Shown: positions 25,195-48,242 of the stretch, piece after piece | Numbering within the stretch: the first letter of the stretch is position 1 | How the letters are laid out: each line of letters begins with the position of its first letter | Assembly (NCBI RefSeq): GCF_030013595.1 | Contig: NZ_CP122768.1 | Origin: Escherichia coli | GTDB taxonomy: Bacteria > Pseudomonadota > Gammaproteobacteria > Enterobacterales > Enterobacteriaceae | Length of the DNA stretch: 64,000 bases | Strand: one strand, 5' to 3' | Made by a program: the position numbers and the translations under genes | Notes under the pieces: model-generated | What the model saw: the letters and a program-made list of their open reading frames with translations, nothing else | Told to the model about the DNA's origin: nothing | Databases searched by the model: none

Positions 25195-25250
25195 TTCCAA
25201 TTGTAATGATAACCATTCTCATATTAATATGGCTACGTGATAATTAACTT
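25195..25250 (+). promoter_or_regulatory. fecI promoter region with Fur box
   Basis: tgtaatgataaccattctc (25202..25220) resembles the Fur-box consensus GATAATGATAATCATTATC; immediately upstream of fecI. Confidence 0.6.
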
Positions 25251-25264
25251 TTGATGCACTCCGC

Positions 25265-25782: not shown

Positions 25783-25786
<4 letters not shown>
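25265..25786 (+). CDS. fecI: ECF sigma factor FecI
   Basis: 173 aa, sigma-70 region 2 and 4 features; followed by fecR. Confidence 0.95.
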
Positions 25787-29147
<3,361 letters not shown>

Positions 29148-29191
29148 TGTGTTAACGCCCGGCTTGCCGGGCTTTTAGCTGGAATGTGATT

Positions 29192-30094
29192 ATGTTGGCA
29201 TTTATCCGTTTTCTTTTTGCAGGCCTGCTGCTGGTGATCAGCCACGCCTTTGCCGCCACGGTTCAGGACGAACACGGCACGTTTACACTCGAAAAAACGC
29301 CACAACGGATTGTGGTGCTGGAACTCTCGTTCGCCGATGCGCTGGCCGCCGTGGACGTCAGCCCGATCGGTATTGCCGACGATAACGATGCAAAACGCAT
29401 CCTGCCCGAAGTGCGTGCGCACCTGAAACCGTGGCAGTCCGTCGGAACGCGCGCGCAGCCGAGCCTGGAAGCCATTGCCGCTCTGAAACCAGACCTGATC
29501 ATTGCCGACAGCAGTCGCCATGCGGGGGTTTACATCGCCTTGCAGCAAATCGCGCCGGTACTGCTGCTTAAGTCCCGCAACGAAACCTACGCTGAAAATT
29601 TGCAATCTGCGGCTATCATCGGCGAAATGGTGGGTAAAAAGCGAGAGATGCAGGCACGTCTGGAACAACATAAAGAGAGGATGGCGCAGTGGGCCAGCCA
29701 GCTTCCCAAAGGGACACGCGTGGCCTTTGGCACATCACGCGAACAGCAATTCAACCTGCATACTCAGGAGACCTGGACCGGCAGCGTGCTGGCCTCTCTG
29801 GGGCTGAACGTTCCCGCTGCGATGGCGGGTGCGTCCATGCCGTCCATCGGCCTGGAGCAACTGCTGGCGGTCAATCCTGCCTGGCTGCTGGTTGCCCACT
29901 ATCGCGAAGAGAGCATTGTTAAACGCTGGCAACAAGATCCGCTCTGGCAGATGTTAACCGCCGCGCAGAAGCAGCAGGTTGCTTCGGTCGACAGTAACAC
30001 CTGGGCGCGGATGCGCGGTATTTTTGCTGCAGAGCGTATTGCCGCTGACACGGTAAAAATCTTCCACCATCAGCCGCTTACCGTTGTGAAATGA
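29192..30094 (+). CDS. fecB: periplasmic ferric citrate-binding protein FecB
   Basis: Start at MLAFIRFLFAGLLLVISHAFA (300 aa). Confidence 0.93.
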   Translation: MLAFIRFLFAGLLLVISHAFAATVQDEHGTFTLEKTPQRIVVLELSFADALAAVDVSPIGIADDNDAKRILPEVRAHLKPWQSVGTRAQPSLEAIAALKPDLIIADSSRHAGVYIALQQIAPVLLLKSRNETYAENLQSAAIIGEMVGKKREMQARLEQHKERMAQWASQLPKGTRVAFGTSREQQFNLHTQETWTGSVLASLGLNVPAAMAGASMPSIGLEQLLAVNPAWLLVAHYREESIVKRWQQDPLWQMLTAAQKQQVASVDSNTWARMRGIFAAERIAADTVKIFHHQPLTVVK

Positions 30095-31089
30095 CCGCGA
30101 TAAAACACCCGGTGCTGCTGTGGGGGCTTCCCGTTGCAGCACTTATTATTATTTTCTGGCTGAGTCTGTTTTGCTACTCGGCCATTCCTGTTTCCGGAGC
30201 AGATGCAACCCGCGCCCTGCTGCCTGGACACACGCCAACGCTACCAGAAGCGCTGGTGCAAAACCTTCGTTTGCCACGAAGCCTCGTCGCCGTTCTGATC
30301 GGCGCAAGCCTGGCGCTCGCGGGCACGCTGCTGCAAACCCTGACCCACAACCCAATGGCCTCTCCTTCACTGCTCGGCATTAACAGCGGCGCGGCGCTGG
30401 CTATGGCGCTTACCAGCGCGCTGAGTCCGACGCCGATTGCAGGCTATTCTCTGTCGTTCATCGCGGCATGCGGGGGCGGCGTGAGCTGGCTGCTGGTCAT
30501 GACCGCAGGAGGCGGATTTCGTCATACCCATGACAGAAACAAACTGATCCTCGCGGGTATCGCGCTGTCGGCCTTTTGTATGGGCCTTACCCGCATCACC
30601 CTGCTGCTGGCCGAAGATCATGCTTACGGCATCTTTTACTGGCTGGCAGGCGGAGTGTCCCACGCCCGCTGGCAGGATGTCTGGCAGCTCTTGCCGGTGG
30701 TGGTCACTGCAGTCCCTGTCGTGTTGCTGCTGGCGAATCAACTGAACCTGCTCAACCTCAGCGACAGCACCGCCCATACGCTGGGAGTGAACCTGACGAG
30801 GCTACGTTTGGTCATCAATATGTTAGTGCTGCTTCTGGTTGGTGCGTGCGTCAGCGTGGCAGGTCCGGTGGCATTTATCGGTCTGCTGGTGCCACATCTG
30901 GCGCGCTTCTGGGCAGGCTTCGATCAGCGCAACGTACTGCCAGTGAGCATGCTGCTGGGGGCCACGCTGATGCTGCTGGCAGATGTACTCGCACGCGCGC
31001 TGGCCTTCCCCGGAGATCTGCCCGCAGGCGCAGTGCTGGCGCTGATTGGCAGCCCTTGCTTTGTCTGGCTTGTGAGGAGGCGAGGATGA
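30091..31089 (+). CDS. fecC: ferric citrate ABC permease FecC
   Basis: 332 aa FecCD-family permease. Confidence 0.93.
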   Translation: MTAIKHPVLLWGLPVAALIIIFWLSLFCYSAIPVSGADATRALLPGHTPTLPEALVQNLRLPRSLVAVLIGASLALAGTLLQTLTHNPMASPSLLGINSGAALAMALTSALSPTPIAGYSLSFIAACGGGVSWLLVMTAGGGFRHTHDRNKLILAGIALSAFCMGLTRITLLLAEDHAYGIFYWLAGGVSHARWQDVWQLLPVVVTAVPVVLLLANQLNLLNLSDSTAHTLGVNLTRLRLVINMLVLLLVGACVSVAGPVAFIGLLVPHLARFWAGFDQRNVLPVSMLLGATLMLLADVLARALAFPGDLPAGAVLALIGSPCFVWLVRRRG

Positions 31090-32042
31090 AAATTGCGCTG
31101 GTTATTTTCATCACCCTTGCCCTGGCGGGCTGTGCGCTGTTATCACTCCATATGGGAGTGATCCCCGTGCCGTGGCGCGCGCTGCTGACCGACTGGCAGG
31201 CCGGACGCGAGCATTATTATGTATTGATGGAGTACCGACTGCCGCGCTTGCTGCTGGCACTGTTTGTCGGTGCAGCCCTCGCCGTGGCGGGTGTGCTGAT
31301 ACAGGGGATTGTGCGCAACCCTCTGGCATCACCGGATATTCTCGGCGTTAACCATGCCGCCAGCCTGGTCTCTGTGGGGGCTCTACTTCTTATGCCGTCA
31401 CTGCCCGTGATGGTGCTGCCGCTGCTGGCCTTTGCGGGCGGCATGGCGGGGTTGATATTGCTGAAGATGCTGGCAAAGACCCACCAGCCGATGAAGCTGG
31501 CGCTCACCGGCGTGGCGCTTTCTGCATGCTGGGCCAGCCTGACGGATTATCTGATGCTCTCGCGCCCGCAGGATGTGAACAACGCCCTGCTGTGGCTGAC
31601 CGGCAGCTTATGGGGCCGTGACTGGAGCTTTGTGAAGATTGCCATCCCGCTGATGATTTTATTTCTGCCGCTGAGCCTGAGTTTTTGCCACGATCTCGAC
31701 CTCCTTGCACTCGGCGATGCGCGCGCCACCACGCTCGGTGTGTCGGTGCCCCATACCCGATTCTGGGCTTTGTTACTAGCTGTCGCCATGACATCTACCG
31801 GCGTGGCCGCCTGCGGCCCGATTAGCTTTATTGGTCTCGTGGTGCCGCATATGATGCGTAGCATCACCGGTGGACGTCACCGCAGACTGCTGCCTGTTTC
31901 GGCCCTGACAGGTGCGTTGCTGTTGGTGGTTGCCGATCTGCTGGCGAGAATTATTTATCCCCCACTGGAGCTCCCGGTTGGCGTGCTGACCGCCATTATC
32001 GGTGCGCCGTGGTTTGTCTGGTTGCTTGTGAGAATGCGATAA
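31086..32042 (+). CDS. fecD: ferric citrate ABC permease FecD
   Basis: Start at MKIALVIFITLALAG overlapping fecC stop; the 488-aa ORF in the track is an upstream over-extension in this GC-rich region. Confidence 0.92.
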   Translation: MKIALVIFITLALAGCALLSLHMGVIPVPWRALLTDWQAGREHYYVLMEYRLPRLLLALFVGAALAVAGVLIQGIVRNPLASPDILGVNHAASLVSVGALLLMPSLPVMVLPLLAFAGGMAGLILLKMLAKTHQPMKLALTGVALSACWASLTDYLMLSRPQDVNNALLWLTGSLWGRDWSFVKIAIPLMILFLPLSLSFCHDLDLLALGDARATTLGVSVPHTRFWALLLAVAMTSTGVAACGPISFIGLVVPHMMRSITGGRHRRLLPVSALTGALLLVVADLLARIIYPPLELPVGVLTAIIGAPWFVWLLVRMR

Positions 32043-32810
32043 ATGACTTTACGAACTGAAAATCTGACGGTCAGTTACGGGACAGACAAGGTACTTAACG
32101 ACGTTTCACTCTCACTGCCAACGGGGAAGATCACCGCCCTGATCGGTCCTAACGGTTGCGGGAAATCGACGCTGTTAAACTGTTTTTCGCGGCTTTTAAT
32201 GCCGCAGTCTGGCACCGTATTTCTCGGCGATAATCCCATAAATATGCTCTCATCGCGCCAGTTGGCCCGCAGGCTTTCGCTGCTGCCTCAGCACCATTTA
32301 ACGCCAGAGGGGATCACAGTCCAGGAGCTGGTTTCGTATGGTCGTAATCCCTGGCTGTCACTCTGGGGGCATCTCTCCGCTGAAGACAATGCACGAGTTA
32401 ATGTCGCCATGAACCAGACCCGGATTAATCATCTTGCCGTTCGTCGGTTAACCGAGCTTTCCGGCGGTCAGCGCCAGCGCGCATTTCTGGCGATGGTCCT
32501 GGCCCAGAATACGCCCGTTGTATTACTTGATGAACCAACCACCTATCTTGATATCAATCACCAGGTGGACCTGATGCGGTTGATGGGCGAACTCCGGACT
32601 CAGGGGAAAACGGTGGTCGCTGTGCTGCACGACCTTAATCAGGCTAGCCGGTACTGCGATCAACTGGTGGTAATGGCAAACGGGCATGTTATGGCGCAAG
32701 GCACACCAGAAGAGGTGATGACCCCAGGATTGCTGAGAACAGTATTCAGCGTGGAAGCGGAAATACACCCCGAGCCGGTATCTGGCAGGCCGATGTGCCT
32801 AATGAGGTAG
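32043..32810 (+). CDS. fecE: ferric citrate ABC ATPase FecE
   Basis: 255 aa with Walker A GPNGCGKST and ABC signature LSGGQRQR. Confidence 0.95.
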   Translation: MTLRTENLTVSYGTDKVLNDVSLSLPTGKITALIGPNGCGKSTLLNCFSRLLMPQSGTVFLGDNPINMLSSRQLARRLSLLPQHHLTPEGITVQELVSYGRNPWLSLWGHLSAEDNARVNVAMNQTRINHLAVRRLTELSGGQRQRAFLAMVLAQNTPVVLLDEPTTYLDINHQVDLMRLMGELRTQGKTVVAVLHDLNQASRYCDQLVVMANGHVMAQGTPEEVMTPGLLRTVFSVEAEIHPEPVSGRPMCLMR

Positions 32811-33347
32811 ATTGCACAGGCCGTAAGAACCAAACCACGACTGAATGAAACTGGACTGGCGCCAGCAAGCCAGTTCAGACTGGGGCTGAACTTTTCCGGA
32901 CTCTGAAAGATTACCAATACTCATCGTCCATCCGCTTGCTTTAGGCTGACAGGTTCATAATCAACGCAAACCAGAGCTGTACAGGCTTGGGCGCGGCTTT
33001 CAAACCAGTCGTGATCACGGCAATCAATTTTGAACTCTGCTTAACGGACATTTCTGTATAACCCTTACGGCAACGAAAAACGCGAAGTTAAAATTTTAGA
33101 AACCCAAAAACGTGACATGACTAAGTTTAGATTTCAGGGGGGAGATCAAAAAATTTCGCTCTGTGCCAGAGCGGACATTCATGGAGCTGGTTCATTACCA
33201 ATGAGGTTGGGCTTTTGAGGATAAATCAATGATCAGACGCCAACGTAAATCAAAAGCAACCCTGGAACGGAATTGCTAATCCAGTTTCTGACCATCGATT
33301 TTTCTAAAAAGTGTGCGTTTGCTACTACTTAGGTAGGTGCAGCTTTC

Positions 33348-34662
33348 TTAATCACCGGCAGCCACGCTGGTCTGTTTACTGTCGTACTTACTGGTGTCCT
33401 GCTGGCTGCTTATCAGCAGGTCGTGGCCCACATCGGCGATAATCCTGTTGCCGTTGACCTGAGCACCGTTCAGTACCGTATCCCGACCACTGTTGATGGT
33501 GACGGTTTTACCGCTGTCTGTTGTGGTTTCAGTCCACTCAGTACCGTTACCTTTCTCGCTGCCTTTTGCCGCATTAACGCTGGCAAAGACGCTGATACCG
33601 GCACCGTTACCACCGGCACCGATACTGACACCCACGCCACCGCCAGCCCCGGTTATCAATGGTGCTGAGGTAGTCACTCCATGAATACGTGTAATCCACC
33701 AGGGTATAGCCATACGGCAGACTGACACCGGCGGCAAAATTCCTCGCATCATGTGACACCGAAAAGTCACTGCTCCGTCCCCCGCTGACAAACCAGTTGT
33801 CAGCCAGCCCCAGAGGATTATTAAAGGAAAGGACACCATTTAACTGCCCCGTACCGGTATTCTTCTGCCCGCTGTTGTCGATGCCCACGCTCCCTGTGAC
33901 TGGCCATTCCGGCAATGCCGTCAGTGTCACCACCGACCATCCCTCACGGTCACCGGGCGATATTTCAATCTGTACCGGTTCCGTACGCAGACGATTAATC
34001 TGCTCCATCCCCTGCTCAATATCCCGCAGGTTCAGAACCTTCCCCTCCATTCCCGGGAAAACCATCTTCAGGGTGCGGGCAGGAAGGTCAGCGCCTTCCG
34101 CCCGGATTTGCTGCAGCCTGCCTTCCATGACCGTTATGTGCAGTACGCCCCCTGAAAGGTCCTGCTCTGTCAGAAAGGCCCGGCTGGTGATATATCCCCG
34201 GCGTATATAGCCGTCCGTCACGGCATCCGTGACCGCAGTCAGGCCGGTGATATTCAGACACTGATTCACCCACGGTGCCACCAGTCTGTCGGTTTCTGCA
34301 GACGTCAGTCGGGTGGCCCCACTGACAACAATGCGTGACACCGTAAAGCAGGGGCCTTCAGTACCGGCAGACGTTTCCGGAGACGGCGTGATAGTCAGCG
34401 GCGCACTGCGCTCCAGCGCATCACGCTGATGCTGGTTTTCATCCAGCAACTGCTGCTGTTGCTGCTGAATTGCACTGCGGTCACCCGGAGACAGCATGGC
34501 TGCCGGAGACGAAAATGCGGGGATAAAAAAACCAGAAAAAACGGAGAGGGAGAGATAGCATATCCACGGAGAGCCACGCCGGAACATATCACAACAGGGG
34601 ACAGACAACGCACGGGATAAAAGGGACGTTTTCGTCAGAATGTTGTTCTGCCGGCGCTGCAT
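33348..34662 (-). pseudogene. two-partner-secretion locus remnant: truncated TpsB (ShlB/FhaC/CdiB-family) transporter plus out-of-frame glycine-rich hemagglutinin-like fragment
   Basis: 351-aa ORF has signal-peptide region, poly-Gln stretch and POTRA-like N-terminal half but ends prematurely; an overlapping 163-aa ORF in another frame is Gly/Thr/Asn-rich like TpsA passenger repeats. Confidence 0.6.
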
Positions 34663-35177
34663 GTTCTCCCCGTATTCTGGCCTGTGTGATGCCAGTGTAA
34701 ATTCATGTCAAAAAGTGTCAGCGAGAAAATTTACACCTGAAAAAGTCTGTCATGAAACAGTTTTATGACAAGACATCAAAAAAATGTCAAAAACGTGATC
34801 TTTCTTCAGCTTTTCAGAATATTGAGTACCAGGAAGTCAATATCAATTCTGGGACACATATGCATTTACCATTAAAACCGGGCACAACAAGCTGTTCAGT
34901 CTCAATCCATACCCCGTGTTTTATCAATATCAGAATAAGAATATCTGCGGATAAATAAAAAAGGAATGTCGAGGGAGCTTACCGCAGAGGGCTCTCCACC
35001 TCACAAACCATTTACAAAAATGATACCGGCATATCTTTGGTCCCTGTCACAACCAGACATTGACAATCCAATATAACCCCAAATATATTTCGGGTAAGAA
35101 GTCTGGGATTTATACAGATATACTGTCTGTTATTACTATTTAATTATATAATTGTATTGCATACATAAGAGGCACTA

Positions 35178-35567
35178 ATGAAACGTTATATAAAATGGTT
35201 TGCCATCACAATTTTTATCAGTATGTTGAGTGCCTGTGCCCGTACGGCCCCAGTGCAACAGATAAGCACCACTGTCAGTGTGGGTCATACTCAGGAGCAG
35301 GTTAAAAATGCCATTTTGAAAGCAGGTGCGCAGCGCAAGTGGATTATGACGCAAGTGTCCCCTGGAGTTATTAAAGCTCGCTATCAAACACGAAATCACG
35401 TTGCAGAGGTTCGTATTACATATACAGCTACCTACTATAACATCAAATATGACAGTAGCCTGAATCTGCAGGCTTCTGATGGAAAAATTCATAAAAACTA
35501 TAACCGCTGGGTGCGTAACCTAGATAAAGATATACAGGTTAACTTATCTACAGGAGCAACGTTATAG
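35178..35567 (+). CDS. apeA: small lipoprotein, first gene of the APE-type cluster
   Basis: 129 aa with lipobox ISMLSAC; sits 64 bp upstream of the methyltransferase gene; symbol assigned by gene order in the published ape nomenclature. Confidence 0.6.
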   Translation: MKRYIKWFAITIFISMLSACARTAPVQQISTTVSVGHTQEQVKNAILKAGAQRKWIMTQVSPGVIKARYQTRNHVAEVRITYTATYYNIKYDSSLNLQASDGKIHKNYNRWVRNLDKDIQVNLSTGATL

Positions 35568-35631
35568 TGATGCTGATATCGGGCTGGAATGGCCCGATAG
35601 TATTTAACTTTCTCTATAAGAATGGTTATAT

Positions 35632-36690
35632 ATGTACGAACAGGACACGCTCAGCGCACTGGATGCCATCACCGAAGCACAGCGGATTGCCTTTGCTCCT
35701 ATGCTTTTCCAGGCAGCTTTGTGCCTGCGCAATGCAGGAATATTAGATTATTTGGATCAACAGGGTAAACAGGGAGCTCCCCTTAATGCGATTACTGAGC
35801 ACACAGTCCTGAATGAATATGCCGTGGGTGTGTTACTGGATATGGGCTTAAGCGGGCGAATTATTACCTGTAAAGAGGGAATTTATTACCTGGCGAAAAT
35901 CGGTCATTACCTCCTGCATGACACTATGACTCGCGTGAATATGGATTTCACCCAGGATGTCTGTTACCAGGGGCTCTTCTTCCTTGCCGATTCACTCAAT
36001 GAAGGAAAACCTTCCGGGTTAAAAGTATTTGGCGACTGGCCGACGATATATCCGGCACTTTCGCAATTACCAGACGCCGCACGTGATAGCTGGTTTGCGT
36101 TTGATCATTACTATTCAGATGGCGCATTTAACGCCGCACTGCCTTATGTATTCGCCAACAACCCCACAACCTTGTACGATGTGGGTGGCAATACGGGTAA
36201 GTGGGCTTTGCGCTGCTGCAAATTCAATGAAAACATCGCCGTTACGTTATTAGATCTGCCACAACAAATCGTACTGGCGAAAGAAAATATCGCGAATGCA
36301 GGTTTTTCTGATCGCATAGATTTCCATGCGGTGGATATGCTAAGCGATGCCCCATTACCAGGCGAGGCTGATATCTGGTGGATGAGCCAATTTTTAGACT
36401 GTTTTTCACCCGAACAAATAATTAGCATACTCAGCAAAATTGCCAGCGTAATGAAGCCTGGCGCAAAACTTTGCATCATGGAGTTGTTCTGGGATGCACA
36501 GCGGTTTGAAGCGACATCGTTTAGCCTGAATGCATCCTCACTTTATTTTACCTGCATGGCAAACGGTAACAGCCGTTTCTATAGTGCAGAGAAATTTTAC
36601 GACTATCTGAATAAAGCAGGATTCCAGGTAGCAGAGTGTCACGATAATTTAGGCGTTGGGCATACACTTTTGATATGCCAAAAGAAATAA
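35632..36690 (+). CDS. apeB: class I SAM-dependent O-methyltransferase
   Basis: 352 aa; motif I LYDVGGNTGKWAL and overall plant-type O-MT-like length with N-terminal dimerisation region. Confidence 0.75.
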   Translation: MYEQDTLSALDAITEAQRIAFAPMLFQAALCLRNAGILDYLDQQGKQGAPLNAITEHTVLNEYAVGVLLDMGLSGRIITCKEGIYYLAKIGHYLLHDTMTRVNMDFTQDVCYQGLFFLADSLNEGKPSGLKVFGDWPTIYPALSQLPDAARDSWFAFDHYYSDGAFNAALPYVFANNPTTLYDVGGNTGKWALRCCKFNENIAVTLLDLPQQIVLAKENIANAGFSDRIDFHAVDMLSDAPLPGEADIWWMSQFLDCFSPEQIISILSKIASVMKPGAKLCIMELFWDAQRFEATSFSLNASSLYFTCMANGNSRFYSAEKFYDYLNKAGFQVAECHDNLGVGHTLLICQKK

Positions 36691-36730
36691 TCGTCACTTA
36701 ATAATTTTGGTTTACCGCGGGCGCGCGTTG

Positions 36731-37453
36731 ATGAAATTTGCATTAAATATTACCAACTGGCAGGCACTGGCGCCTGGACTTAGCGATGTGCAGCAATGGC
36801 AAGCATGGTCGCGCCAGCCGTGGGCGATTGACCCTGCCGCGCCGTTGGCAAAATTAAGTGAACTGCCAATGATGACCGCTCGTCGTCTCAGTTCAGGCAG
36901 CAAACTGGCTGTTGAATGCGGTCTGACAATGCTACGCCGCCATCAGCCAGACGCTGTTTTGTATACCAGTCGTCATGGCGAACTGGAGCGCAATTACCGC
37001 ATTGTTCATGCACTGGCAACCGAACAGGCGCTTTCTCCGACGGACTTCGCGCTTTCCGTACACAACTCTTCCGTGGGTAACCTGACCATTGTGGCCAAAC
37101 AGCCGATCGTTTCGTCATCGCTTTCGGCTGGTCGCGACAGTTTCCAGCAAGGTTTGTGTGAAGTGCTTAGCCTGCTACAAGCGGGATACCAGCGCGTGTT
37201 GATGGTCGATTTTGATGGCTTTCTACCTGAGTTTTATCACCCGCAACTGCCCGCAGAAATGCCTACCTGGCCGTACGCCGTCGCGCTGGTGATTGAAGCT
37301 GGCGATGACTGGCAATGTGAAACGCAGCCAGCCATTGCGGTAAATGAAACAACACTGCCGCAAAGCATCTTGTTTTTACAGCACTATTTACAAAATGCAG
37401 ATGCTTTTTCACTGCCTGGCGAGCGCGTGCAATGGCGCTGGAGCCGCAGATGA
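36731..37453 (+). CDS. apeC: ketosynthase-like protein lacking active-site Cys (chain-length-factor candidate)
   Basis: 241 aa KS N-terminal-like fold without the ACSSS Cys motif or HGT/GHT histidines; start set at MKFALNITNW. Confidence 0.65.
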   Translation: MKFALNITNWQALAPGLSDVQQWQAWSRQPWAIDPAAPLAKLSELPMMTARRLSSGSKLAVECGLTMLRRHQPDAVLYTSRHGELERNYRIVHALATEQALSPTDFALSVHNSSVGNLTIVAKQPIVSSSLSAGRDSFQQGLCEVLSLLQAGYQRVLMVDFDGFLPEFYHPQLPAEMPTWPYAVALVIEAGDDWQCETQPAIAVNETTLPQSILFLQHYLQNADAFSLPGERVQWRWSRR

Positions 37454-38271
37454 GTAAGCTGATGTCGCGCCTGGGATGGGCATGGCGACTGGTCATGACC
37501 GGGTTATGTTTTGTCCTGTTTGGTCTCGGCGGCCTGCTGCTTTCAGTCGTGTGGTTTAACATATTGTTAGTTTTGGTGTGGGATACTTCCCGCCGCCGTC
37601 GTTTGGCACGTCGCAGCATTGCCGCCAGTTTTCGCCTGTTTTTAACTGTCGCGAAAGGGCTTGGCGTGCTGGATTATCGTATTGATGGCGCTGAAATTTT
37701 ACGTCAGGAACGCGGTTGCCTCGTCGTAGCCAATCATCCCACGCTGATCGATTACGTGCTGCTGGCATCAGTCATGCCAGAAACTGACTGCCTGGTGAAA
37801 AGCGCGCTGTTAAAAAATCCTTTTCTTGGCGGCGTCGTGCGAGCGGCAGATTATTTAATCAACAGCGAAGCAGAAACCCTGTTACCCCGCTGCCAACAGC
37901 GACTGGCACAGGGTGACACTATCCTGATTTTCCCCGAAGGCACACGAACGAAGCCCGGTGAAAAAATGACGTTACAGCGCGGTGCAGCGAATATTGCCGT
38001 GCGCTGCACCAGCGATTTACGCATCGTGACGATCGGCTGTAGCGAGCATCTGCTGGATAAACAAAGTAAGTGGTATGACGTCCCGCCTGCCAGGCCGTTT
38101 TTTACGGTTGAAGTCCGTGGGCGGGTAGAAATCAATAAATTTTACGATGCAACTTCACAAGAGCCGACGCTGGCTGCAAGACAGTTAAACCGGCATCTTT
38201 TGCTTCAATTACAGCAAGGTTGTTTACCTCTATCAGGAATAAATAATGCAAGCGCTTTATCTGGAAATTAA
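37450..38271 (+). CDS. apeD: PlsC-family lysophospholipid acyltransferase
   Basis: HX4D motif (ANHPTLIDY) and FPEGTR motif; N-terminal TM segment; ATGA overlap with apeC stop. Confidence 0.75.
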   Translation: MSKLMSRLGWAWRLVMTGLCFVLFGLGGLLLSVVWFNILLVLVWDTSRRRRLARRSIAASFRLFLTVAKGLGVLDYRIDGAEILRQERGCLVVANHPTLIDYVLLASVMPETDCLVKSALLKNPFLGGVVRAADYLINSEAETLLPRCQQRLAQGDTILIFPEGTRTKPGEKMTLQRGAANIAVRCTSDLRIVTIGCSEHLLDKQSKWYDVPPARPFFTVEVRGRVEINKFYDATSQEPTLAARQLNRHLLLQLQQGCLPLSGINNASALSGN

Positions 38272-38503
38272 AAACCTCATCATCAGCACCCTCAATCTGG
38301 ACGACTTGACTCCTGATGATATTGATATCAATGCGCCACTGTTTGGCGACGGTTTAGGGCTGGACTCTATCGATGCACTGGAACTGGGACTGGCAGTAAA
38401 AAATGAGTACGGCATCGTGCTCTCTGCGGAAAGCGAAGAAATGCGTCAGCACTTTTTCTCCGTCGCCACTCTGGCCTCTTTCATTGCTGCGCAACGTGCC
38501 TGA
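38246..38503 (+). CDS. apeE: acyl carrier protein
   Basis: 85 aa with phosphopantetheine attachment motif LGLDSIDALEL. Confidence 0.8.
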   Translation: MQALYLEIKNLIISTLNLDDLTPDDIDINAPLFGDGLGLDSIDALELGLAVKNEYGIVLSAESEEMRQHFFSVATLASFIAAQRA

Positions 38504-38514
38504 GGAAAACCATC

Positions 38515-38766
38515 ATGACAGACCAACAAACCATTTATCAGGAAGTCTCAGCCCTGCTGGTTAAGCTGTTTGAAATCGATCCGCAGGACATCAAACCTGA
38601 AGCGCGACTGTACGAAGATCTGGAACTGGACAGCATCGACGCCGTTGACATGATTGTGCACCTGCAAAAGAAAACCGGTAAGAAAATCAAGCCGGAAGAG
38701 TTTAAAGCAGTGCGTACAGTCCAGGATGTTGTCGAGGCTGTAGAACGCCTGCTACAAGAAGGCTAA
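38515..38766 (+). CDS. apeF: acyl carrier protein (second copy)
   Basis: 83 aa with LELDSIDAVDM motif. Confidence 0.8.
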   Translation: MTDQQTIYQEVSALLVKLFEIDPQDIKPEARLYEDLELDSIDAVDMIVHLQKKTGKKIKPEEFKAVRTVQDVVEAVERLLQEG

Positions 38767-38770
38767 TTTG

Positions 38771-39352
38771 ATGTCGGGCATTCGCTCGCTACCGATGATT
38801 AAGTTGCTGACCGGATTATTGCTGCTCGTCTGGCCTTTTTTAATCTGGCTAGGTTTGGTGCATAACAGCCTGCACTGGCTGTTGCCGCTGATGGCGCTGT
38901 TGCTTTTATTGCGCCTGCGCCAGCCCCGTCGCCAGACGGGGCCGCTCCAGGTCGTCACAAAAATCGTTGCTGTTGTGGGCATTGTATTGTGTGTCTCCAG
39001 TTTTCTGTTGAAAACGTACCAGTTACTGCTGTTTTACCCGGTAGTGGTTAACGCAGTCATGCTGGCGGTTTTTGGCGGTTCGCTGCGGTCGACAATGCCG
39101 ATAGTTGAGCGGCTGGCACGTTTGCAGGAGCCAGACCTCCCGGAAAAGGCCGTGCGATATACCCGCCGCGTAACGCAGGTCTGGTGCCTGTTTTTTATTT
39201 TCAATGGCAGTATTGCGTTATTTACCACCTTGTATGGCAACATGCCCTTGTGGACAGCCTGGAACGGTATCATTGCTTACCTTCTGATAGGTTTCCTGAC
39301 TGCAGGGGAATGGCTGATACGTCGTAAGATGATCAAACGGAAAACACCATGA
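38771..39352 (+). CDS. apeG: integral membrane protein (COG4648-like)
   Basis: Four or more hydrophobic segments; ATG at 38771 preferred over the TTG at 38768 used by the ORF track. Confidence 0.6.
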   Translation: MSGIRSLPMIKLLTGLLLLVWPFLIWLGLVHNSLHWLLPLMALLLLLRLRQPRRQTGPLQVVTKIVAVVGIVLCVSSFLLKTYQLLLFYPVVVNAVMLAVFGGSLRSTMPIVERLARLQEPDLPEKAVRYTRRVTQVWCLFFIFNGSIALFTTLYGNMPLWTAWNGIIAYLLIGFLTAGEWLIRRKMIKRKTP

Positions 39353-40707
39353 ATCAGACTCTCTCACTTTCACAGTGGTTGACAGCCTCTCGCCCTGTAA
39401 CAACTCCTGTTGCCTGGCTTGGGGAATATACCTGGACACTGGGGCATCTGCGGCATGATGTAGCGCTTTTGATCGACCATTTACGCGACCAGCCAGGCAA
39501 TCGCTGGGCACTTTGTTTTGAAAACAGCTATCTTTTTATTGTAGCGTTGTTGGCCACGCTACACTCAGGTAAAATCCCGGTAATCCCGGGCCATAATCGC
39601 GCCGCTTTGTTAAATGTACAACGCTCTTTGTTTGATTGCGTCCTGAGTGATAAAAGGCTGGGCTGGAACGGTCCACAGTTTGTTGTAAGCACATCTCACC
39701 AGATGACGACCAGCACGATAGCCTTTGATGATATTGCTTCTGACGCGTTTATTGAACTTTTCACATCGGGTTCAACCGGACAACCAAAACAAATTGCAAA
39801 ACCTGTTATCAGCCTTGATCAAGAAGCAAACATGCTGGCAACTCACTTTGCAGACCGACTACTGGGCTGTCGTTTTGTAGCATCCGTGATGCCTCAGCAC
39901 CTGTATGGGCTAACTTTCCGTATTTTTTTACCCATGGCACTTGGCCTGCCATTGCATGCCGCAATGCTCTGGTATTCTGAGCAACTTGCCGCATTAAGCC
40001 ATACCTACCGCTATGCCTTTGTCAGCAGCCCGGCGTTCCTTAAGCGACTCGACCTTCATCTGACGCCTCCCCCAGTGGAAATGATTCTCTCTGCCGGCGG
40101 TATGCTACCATGGCAGGATGTAGAGAAAACTTCCACCTGGCTGAATATATGGCCCGATGAAATCTATGGTAGTACCGAAACAGGTATTCTCGCATGGCGT
40201 TACCGTCAACAGGATAATATCCCCTGGTTTACTTTTTCTGATGTTCATCTTTCACAGGAAAGTGAGGGGGTTCGTGTCTTTTCGCCACTAATCCCTGCTG
40301 AAGGATTGGTGCTTGACGATATGTTGCAATTCAATGAAAACGGTCAGTTCCACCTGATCGGACGACGTGGTCGAGTGGTAAAAATAGAGGAGAAGCGGAT
40401 ATCACTGGTTGAAATCGAACAACGACTTCTGGCACTTGACGGTATTATGGATGTCGCTGCAATACCATTAATACGCAATGGCCGCCAGGCTATCGGTGTC
40501 GTGGTTGTACCAAATAAAGAGGCCCGTCAAATATGGCAATGCTCCGGAGGGAAAACTCTGGAGTTGTCCTGGCGCAAAGCACTATTACCATGGCTTGAAC
40601 CTGTTGCAGTACCTCGTTACTGGCGCATTATTGATGAAATACCAGTAAACAGTATGAACAAGCGTGTCTATGCGCAATTACAGGAGTTATTTCATGATAC
40701 GCCATGA
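39349..40707 (+). CDS. apeH: adenylate-forming acyl/aryl-ACP (or CoA) ligase
   Basis: 452 aa with AMP-binding core motifs TSGSTGQPK and YGSTETG; ATGA overlap with apeG. Confidence 0.8.
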   Translation: MNQTLSLSQWLTASRPVTTPVAWLGEYTWTLGHLRHDVALLIDHLRDQPGNRWALCFENSYLFIVALLATLHSGKIPVIPGHNRAALLNVQRSLFDCVLSDKRLGWNGPQFVVSTSHQMTTSTIAFDDIASDAFIELFTSGSTGQPKQIAKPVISLDQEANMLATHFADRLLGCRFVASVMPQHLYGLTFRIFLPMALGLPLHAAMLWYSEQLAALSHTYRYAFVSSPAFLKRLDLHLTPPPVEMILSAGGMLPWQDVEKTSTWLNIWPDEIYGSTETGILAWRYRQQDNIPWFTFSDVHLSQESEGVRVFSPLIPAEGLVLDDMLQFNENGQFHLIGRRGRVVKIEEKRISLVEIEQRLLALDGIMDVAAIPLIRNGRQAIGVVVVPNKEARQIWQCSGGKTLELSWRKALLPWLEPVAVPRYWRIIDEIPVNSMNKRVYAQLQELFHDTP

Positions 40708-41047
40708 AATTGAGCGCCATCTGGTTCAACCGCAGGAGATGGAAATCGTTCTATACCTTGACCCGATGCTCTACTGGTTTAATGGTCATTTTGCCGTACA
40801 GCCTCTGTTACCAGGCGTGGCCCAGTTGGACTGGGTAATGCATTATGCTACCACGCTGCTTGCTCCGGGCTGGCGTTTTCGTAGTATCCAGAATGTTAAA
40901 TTTCTGGCGCCACTTATACCTGAGACGACTGTTACCCTGCAATTAACATGGCAGGAAACAAGTCAGGTACTCACTTTCTGCTATCAGCGTCACGACGGTG
41001 ACGCCCGCCACACCGCCAGTAGCGGGAAGATCCGTCTATGTCGGTAA
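40694..41047 (+). CDS. apeI: hotdog-fold 3-hydroxyacyl-ACP dehydratase
   Basis: About 117 aa FabA/FabZ-like size; start set at MIRHEIER overlapping apeH end. Confidence 0.6.
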   Translation: MIRHEIERHLVQPQEMEIVLYLDPMLYWFNGHFAVQPLLPGVAQLDWVMHYATTLLAPGWRFRSIQNVKFLAPLIPETTVTLQLTWQETSQVLTFCYQRHDGDARHTASSGKIRLCR

Positions 41048-42714
41048 ACTTTTCTCCCTGCGTGTTGATCCCCTGCTACAACCACGGCGCGATGATGCCG
41101 GGCGTGCTGGCGCGTCTTAAGCCATTTAATCTGCCCTGTATTGTGGTGGATGACGGCAGCGATGCCGCCACGCAACAGCAACTGGATAATCTGGTTAGCG
41201 AACAGCCTGGCGTGACCTTAATTCGCCTGGCAGAAAACGCAGGTAAAGGCGCAGCGGTGATGCGTGGCTTGCAGGCAGCGGCAGACGCAGGGTTCAGCCA
41301 TGCGGTGCAGGTGGATGCTGACGGTCAACATGCGATTGAAGATATCCCCAAACTGCTGGCACTCGCTGAACAACACCCTGTGGCGCTGATCTCCGGTCAG
41401 CCAATTTACGATGACTCCATTCCCCGCTCACGGCTGTACGGGCGCTGGGTCACCCACGTCTGGGTATGGATCGAAACGCTCTCCCTGCAACTGAAAGACA
41501 GCATGTGCGGTTTTCGCGTTTATCCGGTTGCGCCGACGCTGCAACTGGCAAAACGCGCCACCATCGGCAAGCGGATGGATTTCGACACCGAAGTGATGGT
41601 GCGCCTCTACTGGCAGGGAAATACCAGCTATTTCGTGCCGACCCGCGTCACCTATCCACTGGACGGGCTTTCGCATTTTGATGCCCTGAAAGATAACGTC
41701 CGCATCTCGCTCATGCACACGCGTCTGTTTTTCGGCATGTTGCCGCGTATTCCTTCACTGCTGATGTGCCACTCTTCCAGCCACTGGGCGCGGCAGAGTG
41801 AAGTTAAAGGGTTATGGGGAATGCGCCTGATGCTGCTGGTCTGGCGTCTGCTGGGAAGAACGGCGTTTACCGCGCTGCTTTACCCGGTGGTTGGCGTCTA
41901 CTGGCTCACCGCTGCTCGTGCGCGTAAAGCGTCGCAAGACTGGCTCGCCCGTGTGCGCCAACAACAACCACAGGCAGCAAAAATCAACAGCTATCAGCAC
42001 TTTCTACGTTTCGGCAACGCCATGCTCGACAAAATCGCCAGCTGGCGCGGCGAGCTGCAACTCGGGCGTGATGTGCTGTTTGCGCCAGGCGCAGAAGCGG
42101 CGCTTGACGTCCGCGATCCGCGCGGCAAATTGCTGCTGGCCTCACATCTTGGCGATGTGGAAGTGTGCCGGGCGCTGGCAAAAATTGAGGGCTACAAAAC
42201 CATTAACGCGCTGGTGTTTAGCGAAAACGCCCAACGCTTTAAACAGATAATGCAGGAGATGGCTCCCCAGGCAGGCATTAACCTGATGCCGGTAACAGAT
42301 ATCGGCCCGGAAACCGCCATCCTGCTGAAAGAGAAGCTGGATAACGGCGAATGGGTGGCGATTGTCGGTGACCGCATCGCCGTCACCCCGCAACGCGGCG
42401 GCGACTGGCGCGTCTGCTGGAGTCCGTTTATGGGCCAGCCTGCGCCCTTCCCACAGGGGCCGTTTATTCTCGCCTCTATTTTGCGCTGCCCGGTGAATCT
42501 GATTTTCGCCCTACGCCAGCACGGCAAGCTGCATATTCACTGCGAAACCTTTGCCGACCCGCTGCTGTTGCCGCGTGGCGAACGCCAACAGGCGCTGCAA
42601 AACGCTATCGACCACTACGCCGCGCGTCTGGAACATTACGCGCTCCAGTCGCCCCTCGACTGGTTTAATTTTTTCGATTTCTGGCAACTGCCGGAAATTC
42701 AGGACAAGGAGTAA
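41038..42714 (+). CDS. apeJ: bifunctional GT2 glycosyltransferase / LpxL-like lipid A-type acyltransferase fusion
   Basis: N-terminal family-2 GT features (CVLIPCYNHG, VVDDGSD, VDADGQH) followed by a C-terminal half resembling HtrB/MsbB late acyltransferases. Confidence 0.7.
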   Translation: MSVNFSPCVLIPCYNHGAMMPGVLARLKPFNLPCIVVDDGSDAATQQQLDNLVSEQPGVTLIRLAENAGKGAAVMRGLQAAADAGFSHAVQVDADGQHAIEDIPKLLALAEQHPVALISGQPIYDDSIPRSRLYGRWVTHVWVWIETLSLQLKDSMCGFRVYPVAPTLQLAKRATIGKRMDFDTEVMVRLYWQGNTSYFVPTRVTYPLDGLSHFDALKDNVRISLMHTRLFFGMLPRIPSLLMCHSSSHWARQSEVKGLWGMRLMLLVWRLLGRTAFTALLYPVVGVYWLTAARARKASQDWLARVRQQQPQAAKINSYQHFLRFGNAMLDKIASWRGELQLGRDVLFAPGAEAALDVRDPRGKLLLASHLGDVEVCRALAKIEGYKTINALVFSENAQRFKQIMQEMAPQAGINLMPVTDIGPETAILLKEKLDNGEWVAIVGDRIAVTPQRGGDWRVCWSPFMGQPAPFPQGPFILASILRCPVNLIFALRQHGKLHIHCETFADPLLLPRGERQQALQNAIDHYAARLEHYALQSPLDWFNFFDFWQLPEIQDKE

Positions 42715-42717
42715 AGG

Positions 42718-43140
42718 GTGCTTAACGATCCCCGATTTACCGCTGAAGTCGAGCTGACCATTCCCTTTCACGACGTCGATATGATGGGCGTGGCCTGGCA
42801 CGGTAACTATTTTCGCTACTTTGAAGTGGCCCGCGAGGCGCTGCTCAACCAGTTCAATTACGGCTATCGGCAGATGAAAGAGTCCGGTTATTTGTGGCCA
42901 GTGGTCGATGCGCGGGTGAAATATCGCCACGCCCTCACCTTTGAGCAACGCATCCGCGTGCGTGCGCATATCGAAGAGTTCGAAAACCGTCTGCGGATTG
43001 GCTATCAGATTTTCGATGCCGAAACGGGCAAACGCGCCACCACCGGATACACCATTCAGGTCGCAGTCGACGAGCAAAGCCGCGAACTGTGCTTTGTCAG
43101 CCCCGATATTCTGTTTGAACGCATGGGAGTCAAACCATGA
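42718..43140 (+). CDS. apeK: 4HBT/YbgC-type hotdog thioesterase
   Basis: 140 aa, GTG start; conserved N-terminal HDVD...GVAWHGNYFRYFE region typical of 4-hydroxybenzoyl-CoA thioesterase family. Confidence 0.75.
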   Translation: MLNDPRFTAEVELTIPFHDVDMMGVAWHGNYFRYFEVAREALLNQFNYGYRQMKESGYLWPVVDARVKYRHALTFEQRIRVRAHIEEFENRLRIGYQIFDAETGKRATTGYTIQVAVDEQSRELCFVSPDILFERMGVKP

Positions 43141-43742
43141 AATTTTTACCGCTGCTGGCGCTGCTGATTAGCCCGTTTGTGAGCGCCCTGACCCGGGACG
43201 ATCTTCAGCAACGCTTTACCGAACAACCGGTGATCCGCGCCCATTTCGATCAAACCCGGACGATTAAAGATCTGCCGCAGCCGCTGCGATCTCAGGGTCA
43301 GATGTTGATCGCCCGCGACCAGGGGTTATTGTGGGATCAAACCTCACCGTTCCCCATGCAACTATTACTGGACGATAAACGCATGGTGCAGGTGATCAAC
43401 GGTCAGCCGCCGCAAATCATCACGGCAGAAAACAACCCACAGATGTTCCAGTTTAACCACCTGCTGCGCGCGCTGTTCCAGGCCGATCGCAAAGTGCTGG
43501 AACAAAACTTCCGCGTCGAATTTGCCGACAAAGGCGAAGGCCGCTGGACGCTGCGCCTGACGCCGACCACCACGCCGCTGGACAAAATTTTCAACACCAT
43601 CGATCTCGCCGGGCAAACCTATCTGGAGAGCATTCAGCTTAATGATAAACAGGGCGATCGCACCGATATCGCTCTTACCCAACATCAACTGACACCAGCG
43701 CAACTGACCGATGACGAACGCCAACGCTTTGCCACCCAGTAA
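43137..43742 (+). CDS. apeL: LolA-like outer-membrane lipoprotein carrier protein
   Basis: 201 aa with signal peptide MKFLPLLALLISPFVSA; size and composition of LolA/LolB fold. Confidence 0.65.
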   Translation: MKFLPLLALLISPFVSALTRDDLQQRFTEQPVIRAHFDQTRTIKDLPQPLRSQGQMLIARDQGLLWDQTSPFPMQLLLDDKRMVQVINGQPPQIITAENNPQMFQFNHLLRALFQADRKVLEQNFRVEFADKGEGRWTLRLTPTTTPLDKIFNTIDLAGQTYLESIQLNDKQGDRTDIALTQHQLTPAQLTDDERQRFATQ

Positions 43743-46029
43743 ACGCCCCGCGCTGTTATGGGGGCTAGTCTGCCTGGTCATGGCGGCGGCGTTGCTGATC
43801 CTGCTGCCACAATCACGACTGAACAGTAGCGTGCTGGCTATGTTACCCAAACAGGCGATGGGCGATATTCCTCCGGCGCTGAATGACGGCTTTATGCAGC
43901 GTCTGGACCGCCAACTGGTGTGGCTGGTCAGCCCCGGTAAAGAGGCTAATCCCAGGGTGGCTCAGGAGTGGCTGACGCTGCTGCAAAAATCCGCTGCGCT
44001 CGGCGACATTAAAGGGCCAATGGATGCCGCCAGCCAGCAGGCGTGGGGAGCGTTTTTCTGGCAGCACCGCAACGGCCTGATTGACCCCGACACCCGCGCC
44101 CGCCTGCAAAATGGCGGCGAAGCGCAGGCGAAGTGGATCCTCTCCCAGCTTTATTCTGCGTTCTCCGGGGTAAGCGGCAAGGAGCTGCAAAACGATCCGC
44201 TGATGTTAATGCGCGGCTCGCAGCTGGCGATGGCGAAAAATGGCCAGCGTTTACGACTAATGGACGGCTGGCTGGTGACGCAGGATCCCCAGGGCAATTA
44301 CTGGTATCTGCTGCACGGCGAACTGGCGGGATCGTCGTTTGATATGCAGCAAACCCACCAGCTCATCACGACCCTGAATACGCTGGAAAAGGCTCTGAAA
44401 ACGCGTTACCCGCAGGCGCAGTTGCTCTCACGCGGCACGGTGTTTTACAGCGATTACGCCAGCCAACAGGCGAAGCAGGATATCTCCACCCTGGGCGTGG
44501 CAACGCTGCTGGGGGTGATATTGCTGATTGTGGCGGTGTTCCGCTCTTTGCGCCCGTTGCTGCTTTGCGTGATTTCCATCGGCATCGGCGCGCTGGCGGG
44601 AACGGCCGCCACATTGTTGATTTTCGGTGAATTACACCTGATGACGCTGGTGATGAGCATGAGCGTTATCGGCATTTCCGCTGACTACACGCTCTATTAT
44701 CTCACCGAGCGGATGGTGCACGGCAACGACGTTTCGCCGTGGCAAAGCCTGGCGAAAGTACGCAATGCCCTGCTGCTGGCGCTGCTCACAACCGTGGCGG
44801 CATATCTGATTATGATGCTCGCCCCCTTCCCCGGCATTCGCCAGATGGCGATTTTTGCCGCCGTCGGGTTGAGCGCCTCTTGTCTGACCGTCCTGTTCTG
44901 GCATCCGTGGCTGTGCCGTGGTCTGCCGGTGCGCCCGGTTCCGGCGATGGCGCTGATGCTACGCTGGCTGGCAGCGTGGCGGCGCAATAAAAAACTGTCG
45001 CGGGGTCTGCCCGTTGCGCTGGCGCTGTTTTCGCTGGCGGGGATGTCAATGCTGCGCGTCGATGACGATATCTCGCAGTTACAGGCGCTGCCGCAGCACA
45101 TTCTGGCGCAGGAGAAAGCCATTACCGCCCTGACCGGACAAAGCGTCGATCAAAAATGGTTTGTAGTTTACGGCGACTCCCCACAGCAAACATTGCGGCG
45201 ACTGGAGAAATATACCGCCTCACTTGAGTATGCGAAAAAAGAGGGGCTTATCAGCAACTACCGCACTATTCCGCTGAACTCCCTGGCGCGGCAGGAGGAA
45301 GACTTAGACCTGCTGAAAACGGCTGCCCCGACGGTAACAAAAGCACTGCAAAATGCAGGGCTGACGGCGGTGAAACCAGATCTCAACGCCATGCCGGTGA
45401 AGGTCGATGAATGGCTGGCAAGCCCCGCCAGTGAAGGCTGGCGTCTGCTGTGGCTGACGCTGGAAAACGGCGAAAGCGGTGTACTGGTGCCGGTTGAAGG
45501 GGTTAAAAGTAGCGCATTGTTGCAGGAAATCGCCAGCTATTACCCTTGCGGCATTGCCTGGGTTGATCGCAAAAGCTCCTTTGATGAATTGTTCGCACTT
45601 TACCGCTACGTCTTAACCGGCTTGTTGCTGGTGGCGCTGGCAGTGATTGCCTGCGGCGCAGTGGCCCGTCTCGGCTGGCGCAAAGGGCTTATCAGCCTGG
45701 TGCCTTCGGTGCTTTCGCTGGGCTGTGGTCTGGCGGTGCTGGCGATGAGCGGGCAGGCGGTGAATCTCTTTTCGCTGCTGGCGCTGGTGCTGGTGCTTGG
45801 CATCGGTATCAACTACACGCTGTTTTTCAGTAATCCGCGCGGTACACCGTTAACTTCGCTACTGGCGATCGCGCTGGCAATGCTCACCACCTTGCTGACG
45901 CTGGGAATGCTGGTATTCAGCGCCACCCAGGCCATCAGCAGTTTTGGCATTGTGCTGGTGAGCGGTATTTTCACCGCCTTCCTGCTTTCGCCGCTGGCTA
46001 TGCCCGATAAAAAGAGAACAAAAAAATGA
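43711..46029 (+). CDS. apeM: MMPL/RND-superfamily membrane exporter
   Basis: 772 aa with two hydrophobic TM bundles separated by soluble domains; start uncertain (ATG at 43711 or TTG at 43729). Confidence 0.75.
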   Translation: MTNANALPPSKRPALLWGLVCLVMAAALLILLPQSRLNSSVLAMLPKQAMGDIPPALNDGFMQRLDRQLVWLVSPGKEANPRVAQEWLTLLQKSAALGDIKGPMDAASQQAWGAFFWQHRNGLIDPDTRARLQNGGEAQAKWILSQLYSAFSGVSGKELQNDPLMLMRGSQLAMAKNGQRLRLMDGWLVTQDPQGNYWYLLHGELAGSSFDMQQTHQLITTLNTLEKALKTRYPQAQLLSRGTVFYSDYASQQAKQDISTLGVATLLGVILLIVAVFRSLRPLLLCVISIGIGALAGTAATLLIFGELHLMTLVMSMSVIGISADYTLYYLTERMVHGNDVSPWQSLAKVRNALLLALLTTVAAYLIMMLAPFPGIRQMAIFAAVGLSASCLTVLFWHPWLCRGLPVRPVPAMALMLRWLAAWRRNKKLSRGLPVALALFSLAGMSMLRVDDDISQLQALPQHILAQEKAITALTGQSVDQKWFVVYGDSPQQTLRRLEKYTASLEYAKKEGLISNYRTIPLNSLARQEEDLDLLKTAAPTVTKALQNAGLTAVKPDLNAMPVKVDEWLASPASEGWRLLWLTLENGESGVLVPVEGVKSSALLQEIASYYPCGIAWVDRKSSFDELFALYRYVLTGLLLVALAVIACGAVARLGWRKGLISLVPSVLSLGCGLAVLAMSGQAVNLFSLLALVLVLGIGINYTLFFSNPRGTPLTSLLAIALAMLTTLLTLGMLVFSATQAISSFGIVLVSGIFTAFLLSPLAMPDKKRTKK

Positions 46030-46610
46030 TCAAATCCACATTCTGGCGAGCGTTCGCCCTGACCGCTACGCTTATCCTCACCGGCTGTAGCCACTCGCAA
46101 CCAGAACAGGAAGGCCGCCCGCAGGCGTGGCTGCAACCTGGCACGCGCATCACGCTGCCGGCACCAGGGATTTCACCCGCAGTCAATTCGCAGCAACTGT
46201 TGACCGGCAGCTTCAACGGCAAAACCCAGTCGCTGTTAGTGATGCTTAACGCCGACGATCAGAAAATCACCCTTGCCGGGCTGTCGTCGGTCGGCATTCG
46301 CCTGTTTCTGGTGACCTACGATGCGCAAGGGCTACGCGCCGAGCAATCCATCGTCGTCCCACAGTTACCGCCCGCAAGTCAGGTACTGGCTGACGTGATG
46401 CTCAGCCACTGGCCGATTAGCGCCTGGGAGGCGCAACTTCCCGCAGGATGGACACTTCGCGACAACGGTGACAAACGCGAGCTGCGTAACGCCAGCGGCA
46501 AACTGGTCACGGAAATCACCTATCTGAATCGCCAGGGAAAACGCGTGCCAATCAGAATTGAGCAGCATGTCTTTAAATACCACATCACCATTCAATACTT
46601 AGGTGAATGA
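46026..46610 (+). CDS. apeN: DUF3261-type lipoprotein
   Basis: 194 aa, lipobox LTGCSHS; ATGA overlap with apeM. Confidence 0.6.
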   Translation: MIKSTFWRAFALTATLILTGCSHSQPEQEGRPQAWLQPGTRITLPAPGISPAVNSQQLLTGSFNGKTQSLLVMLNADDQKITLAGLSSVGIRLFLVTYDAQGLRAEQSIVVPQLPPASQVLADVMLSHWPISAWEAQLPAGWTLRDNGDKRELRNASGKLVTEITYLNRQGKRVPIRIEQHVFKYHITIQYLGE

Positions 46611-46611
46611 T

Positions 46612-47781: not shown

Positions 47782-48242
47782 GCCACTATTTATCCCCCGG
47801 CGCTTATCTGCCCCACGACGCGCCCATGTTACTGCTGGAAGACGTGGTGAGCGTCAGCGATGACAGCGCGGTGTGCCGCGTGACGGTTTCGCCCAGTGGC
47901 GTACTGGCACCGTTTCTCGACCCGGACGGCAATCTCCCTGGCTGGTTTGCCCTTGAACTGATGGCGCAAACCGTCGGCGTCTGGTCTGGCTGGCATCGCC
48001 ACCAGCAGGGCAAAAACAGTATTGAGTTAGGGATGATACTGGGCGCGCGTGAATTGCTTTGCACCACTGGCATTCTGCCCGCAGGCCAGACGCTGACCAT
48101 TACCGTCAAACTGCTGATGCAGGACGATCGCTTCGGCAGCTTTGAGTGCAGCATCAACGACGGCGAGGCGACGGGCCGCATTAACACCTTCCAGCCGACC
48201 GCGGAAGAACTTACCACCCTGTTTCAACAAGGAGCGTCCTGA
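47778..48242 (+). CDS. apeP: hotdog-fold 3-hydroxyacyl-ACP dehydratase
   Basis: 154 aa FabA-like; GTGA overlap with apeO stop. Confidence 0.65.
   Translation: MSHYLSPGAYLPHDAPMLLLEDVVSVSDDSAVCRVTVSPSGVLAPFLDPDGNLPGWFALELMAQTVGVWSGWHRHQQGKNSIELGMILGARELLCTTGILPAGQTLTITVKLLMQDDRFGSFECSINDGEATGRINTFQPTAEELTTLFQQGAS

Follow-up and report, generated by a model that had tools for sequence, protein, structure and literature searches.

Two adjacent genes on the plus strand of a stretch of Escherichia coli DNA (the window, which is the whole 64,000 nucleotides that were analyzed) are virtually certain to be apeE (38246..38503) and apeF (38515..38766), which encode the dedicated acyl carrier proteins (ACPs) of the type II polyketide-like pathway for aryl polyene (APE) in E. 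coli. The best overall explanation for the presence of two ACPs, and a highly probable one, is that ApeE is the ACP that carries the starter and the growing chain while ApeF is the ACP that delivers the extender units, and the functional split taken on its own, with ApeE as chain carrier and ApeF as extender donor, is likewise probable. The identity of the two proteins, their motifs, their modifiable serines, their gene context and the lack of a phosphopantetheinyl transferase in the window are established here. Activation of the two carriers, loading of the starter on ApeE, malonylation of ApeF and the essentiality of ApeE are predicted for the window proteins from published work on identical or orthologous proteins.

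Both genes are open reading frames with ATG starts, they are the fifth and sixth of the 18 genes in the cluster, and they encode proteins of 85 (ApeE) and 83 (ApeF) residues. They lie at exactly the position where a preliminary description of the window, made from its letters alone, had placed two neighboring ACP genes (38246-38766), and both have a Shine-Dalgarno-like sequence ahead of the start codon, namely AGGA at 38235-38238 for apeE and GAGGA at 38502-38506 for apeF, the latter overlapping the stop codon of apeE. Both products match the Pfam phosphopantetheine-binding family PF00550 (ApeE, 32.3 bits, E 1.2e-7; ApeF, 50.4 bits, E 2.6e-13) at scores that exceed its gathering cutoff of 20.8 bits, and a tblastn search of the 64 kb window revealed no carrier proteins besides these two. 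The motif L-D-S-I-D-A is present in both proteins, and the modifiable serine is Ser41 in ApeE (codon TCT, 38366-38368) and Ser40 in ApeF (codon AGC, 38632-38634). In a multiple alignment these residues are in register with S41 of the structure 9LS6, S40 of the structure 9L1V and the serine of the DSL motif in E. coli AcpP. The DSID/DSL phosphopantetheine serine that had been reported for both proteins is therefore borne out by alignment to the solved structures and AcpP, which also rules out that one of the ACPs lacks this residue. From their sequences, 4′-phosphopantetheinylation is predicted to occur at Ser41 of ApeE and Ser40 of ApeF.

Curated family models separate the two ACPs: the score of ApeE on NCBIfam NF006617 is 89.5 bits (cutoff 70) and that of ApeF on NF003757 is 146.6 bits (cutoff 65), while the cross-scores of the pair, 24.1 and 32.7 bits, are far under cutoff. 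The ApeE-type family has thousands of members, since a protein search gave at least 8000 candidates, the best 120 of which are all from Enterobacterales and have at least 82% identity. That the pair represents a recent tandem duplication with one copy decaying, or that one of the two is a chance open reading frame, has a negligible probability. The two genes adjoin each other, are of similar size and have the LDSIDA motif in common, but their products are just 30% identical (81 aligned residues with 10 gap positions, BLASTP E 5e-9; 32% in the multiple alignment) and are closer to their orthologs in Acinetobacter baumannii (58% identity for ApeE and 42% for ApeF) than they are to each other. 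Both proteins score above curated family cutoffs and both have the serine, and the pair is conserved in 824 E. coli genomes and in Serratia, where the tandem arrangement is likewise present and gene order is unchanged. A recent duplication or a decaying copy is refuted by the 30% identity, by an ortholog similarity that exceeds that of the paralogs and by the separate curated families, and the preliminary description was correct both in noting that the two proteins differ substantially and in concluding that they are not recent tandem duplicates.

The genomic context of the pair is a complete aryl polyene cluster, apeA-apeR (35178..50199, plus strand), which consists of 18 co-oriented and closely packed genes separated by intergenic gaps of −32 to +64 nt. 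The first four genes encode a lipoprotein(-like) product, an O-methyltransferase, a ketosynthase chain-length factor and a lysophospholipid acyltransferase. These are followed by the two ACPs, a membrane protein without a Pfam family (ApeG) and an AMP-binding enzyme (ApeH), and then by an ApeI-like dehydratase (PF22818), a fusion of a family 2 glycosyltransferase with an acyltransferase, a 4HBT thioesterase, a LolA-like protein and an MMPL transporter. The last five are a gene for a DUF3261 protein and two ketosynthase genes, the latter separated by genes for an ApeP-like dehydratase (PF22817) and an SDR ketoreductase. The core APE gene set, as listed in bioRxiv 10.1101/2020.12.19.423268, is complete by Pfam, including the ApeI-like and ApeP-like families: it comprises two ketosynthases with a chain-length factor, a pair of ACPs, the dehydratases ApeI and ApeP, a ketoreductase, the adenylating enzyme and the MMPL transporter. 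The possibility that ApeE and ApeF are peptidyl carrier proteins of a nonribosomal peptide synthetase (NRPS) was ruled out, as the cluster is without a condensation domain or an NRPS adenylation module, and the neighboring ketosynthase, ketoreductase and dehydratase genes also oppose it.

The genes nearest to the pair are apeD, apeG and apeH. The lysophospholipid acyltransferase gene apeD (37450..38271, plus strand, with the start taken from the RefSeq annotation of strain H10407; Pfam Acyltransferase, 70.7 bits) overlaps apeE by 26 nt at its 3′ end (38246..38271). Such overlaps occur at 10 of the 17 gene junctions in the cluster, and the stop codon of apeE falls within the Shine-Dalgarno sequence of apeF (38501..38506). 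The apeD-apeE overlap and the overlap of stop codon and Shine-Dalgarno sequence are signs of translational coupling. Directly 3′ of apeF is apeG (38771..39352, plus strand), which encodes a membrane protein assigned to the COG4648 family by RefSeq and listed as ApeG in Table 1 of PMC8253772; searches of its product against Pfam and NCBIfam gave no match. The gene at 39349..40707 (plus strand), from which an adenylating enzyme had been expected, is apeH, encoding an adenylating acyl-ACP synthetase, as judged by its Pfam AMP-binding match (43.9 bits) and by a position equivalent to that of c1197 of E. coli CFT073, which is ApeH in Table 1 of PMC8253772 and to which it has 99.5% nucleotide identity.

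The role of ApeE is approached through its closest structural counterpart. The top PDB match of ApeE is 9LS6 (E 5.7e-25) and that of ApeF is 9L1V (E 7.6e-19), which according to their depositors are ApeE and ApeF of A. baumannii, respectively (Lee et al. 2025, PMC12624758). In vitro, ApeH adenylates 4-hydroxybenzoate and loads it directly onto an ACP, with a strong preference for ApeE and minimal activity with ApeF, and in NMR titrations ApeE was perturbed by ApeH while ApeF was not (PMC12624758). A result on the loading preference in Xenorhabdus, as cited in PMC8253772, agrees. ApeE was shown to have three insertions, a blocked internal cavity and a surface pocket; variants without the LED loop, the glycine-rich motif or the NAE lid gave lower ApeH loading and lower polyene formation, and the glycine-rich motif is required for the binding of ApeO-ApeC (PMC12624758). 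All of the ApeE-specific motifs defined in that study are kept in the window protein, which has the glycine-rich (G-x-G-x-G) segment G34-D-G-L-G38 ahead of the serine, a three-residue insertion, L18-D-D20, in the loop from helix 1 to helix 2, the central helix 2 glycine G48 and a 'lid' insertion, S60-A-E62, in the loop from helix 2 to helix 3, conserves F33, A44 and F70 with A. baumannii ApeE and, in the alignment, has a longer loop in the lid region than either ApeF or AcpP. By analogy with its orthologs, ApeE of the window is predicted to be the preferred acceptor of 4-hydroxybenzoate.

Genetic evidence for ApeE comes from the CFT073 cluster, in which an in-frame single deletion of apeE was pigment-negative and all APE metabolites were gone (PMC8253772). 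ApeE is more than a starter ACP, as in the published model it carries the growing polyene through all cycles. Hence the suggestion in the preliminary description that the two ACPs are specialized is the leading published model in so far as it concerns a split of functions, whereas its wording, one ACP for the starter and one for elongation, is better replaced by chain carrier and extender donor. Specialization also agrees with the presence of both serines and with the published single deletions, neither of which leaves the product unchanged.

For ApeF, the evidence includes its interaction with FabD, which binds ApeF (by ITC and NMR) and malonylates it, together with a shallow cavity, formed by V38, A43, F63, K64 and V66, that was described as suited to a malonyl group (PMC12624758). 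These cavity residues are kept at four of the five positions in the window protein (A43, F63, K64 and V66), with a conservative replacement of V38 by L38 at the fifth. Polyene synthesis has been reconstituted in vitro with ApeE, ApeF, FabD, ApeH, ApeO-ApeC and ApeQ (PMC12624758). The role of ApeF as a malonyl shuttle has been demonstrated in vitro only, with the A. baumannii and Xenorhabdus doucetiae proteins rather than those of E. coli, and we infer that E. coli ApeF is mainly a malonyl donor in vivo. The corresponding deletion in the CFT073 cluster, ΔapeF, gave partial pigment and a series of abnormal yellow intermediates, and the peak of the mature APE lipid was seen only in extracts of the APE+ and ΔapeR strains (PMC8253772). 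As E. coli that lacks apeF still makes a pigmented polyene, another ACP, either ApeE or AcpP, can therefore deliver malonyl units.

A ΔapeF strain without the mature lipid peak also fits a function of ApeF in the lipid-anchor branch of the pathway. According to a proposal postulated for Xenorhabdus from the structure of the X. doucetiae APE lipid and from deletion mutants, ApeD joins a conjugated fatty acid borne by ApeF to lysophosphatidylglycerol (bioRxiv 10.1101/2020.12.19.423268). The main task of ApeF would then be to hold the conjugated fatty acid, which forms the second acyl chain of the APE lipid, during its assembly and to hand it to ApeD, while ApeE carries the aryl polyene and malonyl units are provided by ApeE, by AcpP or incidentally by ApeF. 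This is unlikely to be its main role in E. coli. The E. coli deletion phenotype of pigmented intermediates without the mature lipid peak (PMC8253772) is compatible with such a role, and apeF is near apeD and apeE in one tightly coupled block, but the shallow cavity suited to malonyl, the residues of which are kept here, and the binding of FabD speak against it, as does the inclusion of ApeF in the in vitro polyene reconstitutions, and for E. coli a lipid of similar kind, with a conjugated fatty acid, is described only as 'feasible' (PMC8253772). It is similarly doubtful that the tandem ACPs mark two parallel lines, with the chromophore assembled on ApeE and the lipid tail on ApeF by shared ketosynthase, ketoreductase and dehydratase enzymes. 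If true, that arrangement would be a confirmation in E. coli of the Xenorhabdus proposal and no new concept.

The partial pigment kept in ΔapeF, and the occurrence of only one ACP in some APE-family clusters such as that for xanthomonadin (PMC8253772), might also be taken to mean that ApeF is a largely redundant spare carrier with no unique task, the loss of which only lowers flux. This is very improbable, as proteins of the ApeF type form a conserved family of their own (NF003757, on which the window protein reaches 146.6 bits), and ApeF of E. coli is 42% identical to that of A. baumannii compared with 30-32% to the adjacent ApeE. Moreover, apeF shows no nucleotide difference from its CFT073 counterpart despite 272 sites that differ elsewhere in the cluster, and the deletion of apeF alters the product profile and not only its amount (PMC8253772). 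Delivery of extender units by ApeF is the preferred reading.

With ApeE as chain carrier and ApeF as extender donor, the pathway would proceed as follows. Both apo-ACPs would be converted to the holo form, on Ser41 of ApeE and Ser40 of ApeF, by a phosphopantetheinyl transferase whose gene lies beyond the window; the enzyme reported for this step is AcpT. ApeH would then adenylate 4-hydroxybenzoate and transfer it directly to holo-ApeE, which would retain the growing chain through repeated cycles that involve the ketosynthases ApeO-ApeC and ApeR, the ketoreductase ApeQ and the dehydratases ApeI and ApeP. The two-carbon extender units would be given by ApeF after its malonylation by the housekeeping enzyme FabD. 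The finished aryl polyene on ApeE would be joined to its lipid anchor by the action of ApeD, ApeJ and ApeK and exported by ApeL, ApeM and ApeN.

The first of these steps would depend on a gene located elsewhere in the genome. No phosphopantetheinyl transferase was found in the window by tblastn with AcpT (best E 1.4), in the Pfam matches of flanking open reading frames or in the RefSeq annotation. All but one of 5426 complete E. coli genomes (5425) carry acpT. Because acpT is nearly universal and the window is without such an enzyme, the island-borne cluster presumably relies on the unlinked AcpT of the core genome. Activation of the homologous ACPs of E. coli O157:H7 by AcpT has been described (De Lay and Cronan 2006, as cited in PMC8253772).

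The APE cluster of the window is part of a genomic island of ∼36 kb (22562..60027) that begins with a tRNA-Phe gene at 22562..22637. After this gene come an integrase, an IS1 remnant and fecIRABCDE, then a truncated two-partner-secretion remnant and apeA-apeR, followed by a LacI-family regulator and by PTS and sugar genes. Its left flank, yjeH/aspA/dcuA/dsbD, is the pheU context. The same island core is found in H10407 at pheV, beside yqgA, and pheV was rejected as the left context of the window as the blastn match to H10407 begins only at 22514. Just 5′ of apeA is an open reading frame for a transporter of the ShlB/FhaC type of two-partner secretion (33607..34662, minus strand), in which the POTRA domains are kept but the ShlB barrel is limited to its first third. 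Its counterpart in H10407 is an annotated pseudogene beside a hemagglutinin-repeat fragment, and the corresponding hemagglutinin gene of CFT073 is longer and is disrupted too. At the right end of the island is an IS1 transposase gene (58573..59076, minus strand), followed by a 5′-truncated cadC (59347..60027), which is reduced to the C-terminal CadC_C1 part; beyond it, cadB and cadA are intact. From its sequence, cadC, which encodes the activator of lysine decarboxylase, appears to be inactivated. The exact junction of sugar kinase, IS1 and truncated cadC was found in one piece in none of the 5426 complete E. coli genomes, the best coverage being 67%.

The APE cluster itself is found in 824 of the 5426 complete E. 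coli genomes. By identity of the ACP pair, the records fall into three bands, with 231 at 99% or above, 436 at 95-99% and 158 at 90-95%, and a few E. coli genomes have two copies of it. The 3.4 kb that surround the ACP genes are 100% identical to many complete genomes, among them that of the ETEC strain H10407, and Nissle 1917 matches the ACP pair at 100% over its 521 nt. The cluster occurs in at least four contexts in E. coli, namely the pheU island (the window), the pheV island (H10407), after dgcT (CFT073) and between yhhT and acpT (O157:H7).

One of the closest known systems is that of CFT073. Its ApeE (c1200) and ApeF (c1199), named as such in Table 1 of PMC8253772, are 100% identical to the window proteins, and the DNA is identical through apeE, apeF and apeG. 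Over the 15,022 nt of the cluster (c1204-c1186), which is colinear and of unchanged gene order, nucleotide identity is 98.2%; the 272 sites that differ include none in apeF. Divergence is unevenly distributed, with 99.1-100% DNA identity from apeA to apeK and 95.5-99.1% from apeL to apeR (43137..50199), where apeM (95.5%, 28 amino acid changes) and apeN (95.9%, nine changes) stand out. This mosaic pattern suggests that recombination may have taken place within the cluster. The two islands also differ in location, that of CFT073 being after dgcT while that of the window is at tRNA-Phe near dsbD and cadC (the pheU context). For the CFT073 aryl polyene cluster, see Cimermancic et al. 2014 and Johnston et al. 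2021 (PMC8253772).

The ACP pair of O157:H7, which we take to be the Z4853/Z4854-type proteins of O-island 138, has 96.7% DNA identity to that of the window, and the proteins differ by three and four residues. The O157:H7 cluster is flanked by yhhT and acpT, the latter starting 2 nt past apeR, whereas in the window a pseudogene remnant and the LacI-family regulator come after apeR, with no phosphopantetheinyl transferase.

The ApeE/ApeF pair is hence already known, with its genetics, biochemistry and structure all published. Single ACP deletions have been reported for CFT073 proteins that are identical to those of the window (PMC8253772), loading by ApeH has been published for the Xenorhabdus and Acinetobacter proteins, and phosphopantetheinylation, according to work cited in PMC8253772, for the O157:H7 homologs. 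In E. coli, APE confers protection from oxidative stress and promotes biofilm formation (PMC8253772), and the potential of ApeE as a target for anti-virulence agents has been considered (PMC12624758). Because its two ACPs are identical to ones that have already been deleted and phenotyped, the window adds nothing new to this picture. The two alternative in vivo roles of ApeF have likewise both been put forward in earlier publications.

Neither a structure nor in vitro loading data for ApeE and ApeF of E. coli turned up in searches of the PDB and the literature. The A. baumannii proteins are orthologs, with which the window proteins have in common the serines S41 and S40, the glycine-rich motif, G48 and both ApeE loop insertions. 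The differences in these segments, from A. baumannii to the window, are LED to LDD, NAE to SAE, K67 to R67 and V38 to L38. More distantly related are AcpP, which has 23-27% identity to the window ACPs, and the ACPs of type II polyketide synthases such as the actinorhodin ACP, all of which share the four-helix phosphopantetheine-binding domain and a serine within a D-S-L/I motif at the start of helix 2. Compared with carriers of the AcpP type, ApeE is distinguished by its three insertions and by a blocked cavity with a surface pocket, and ApeF by its shallow cavity.
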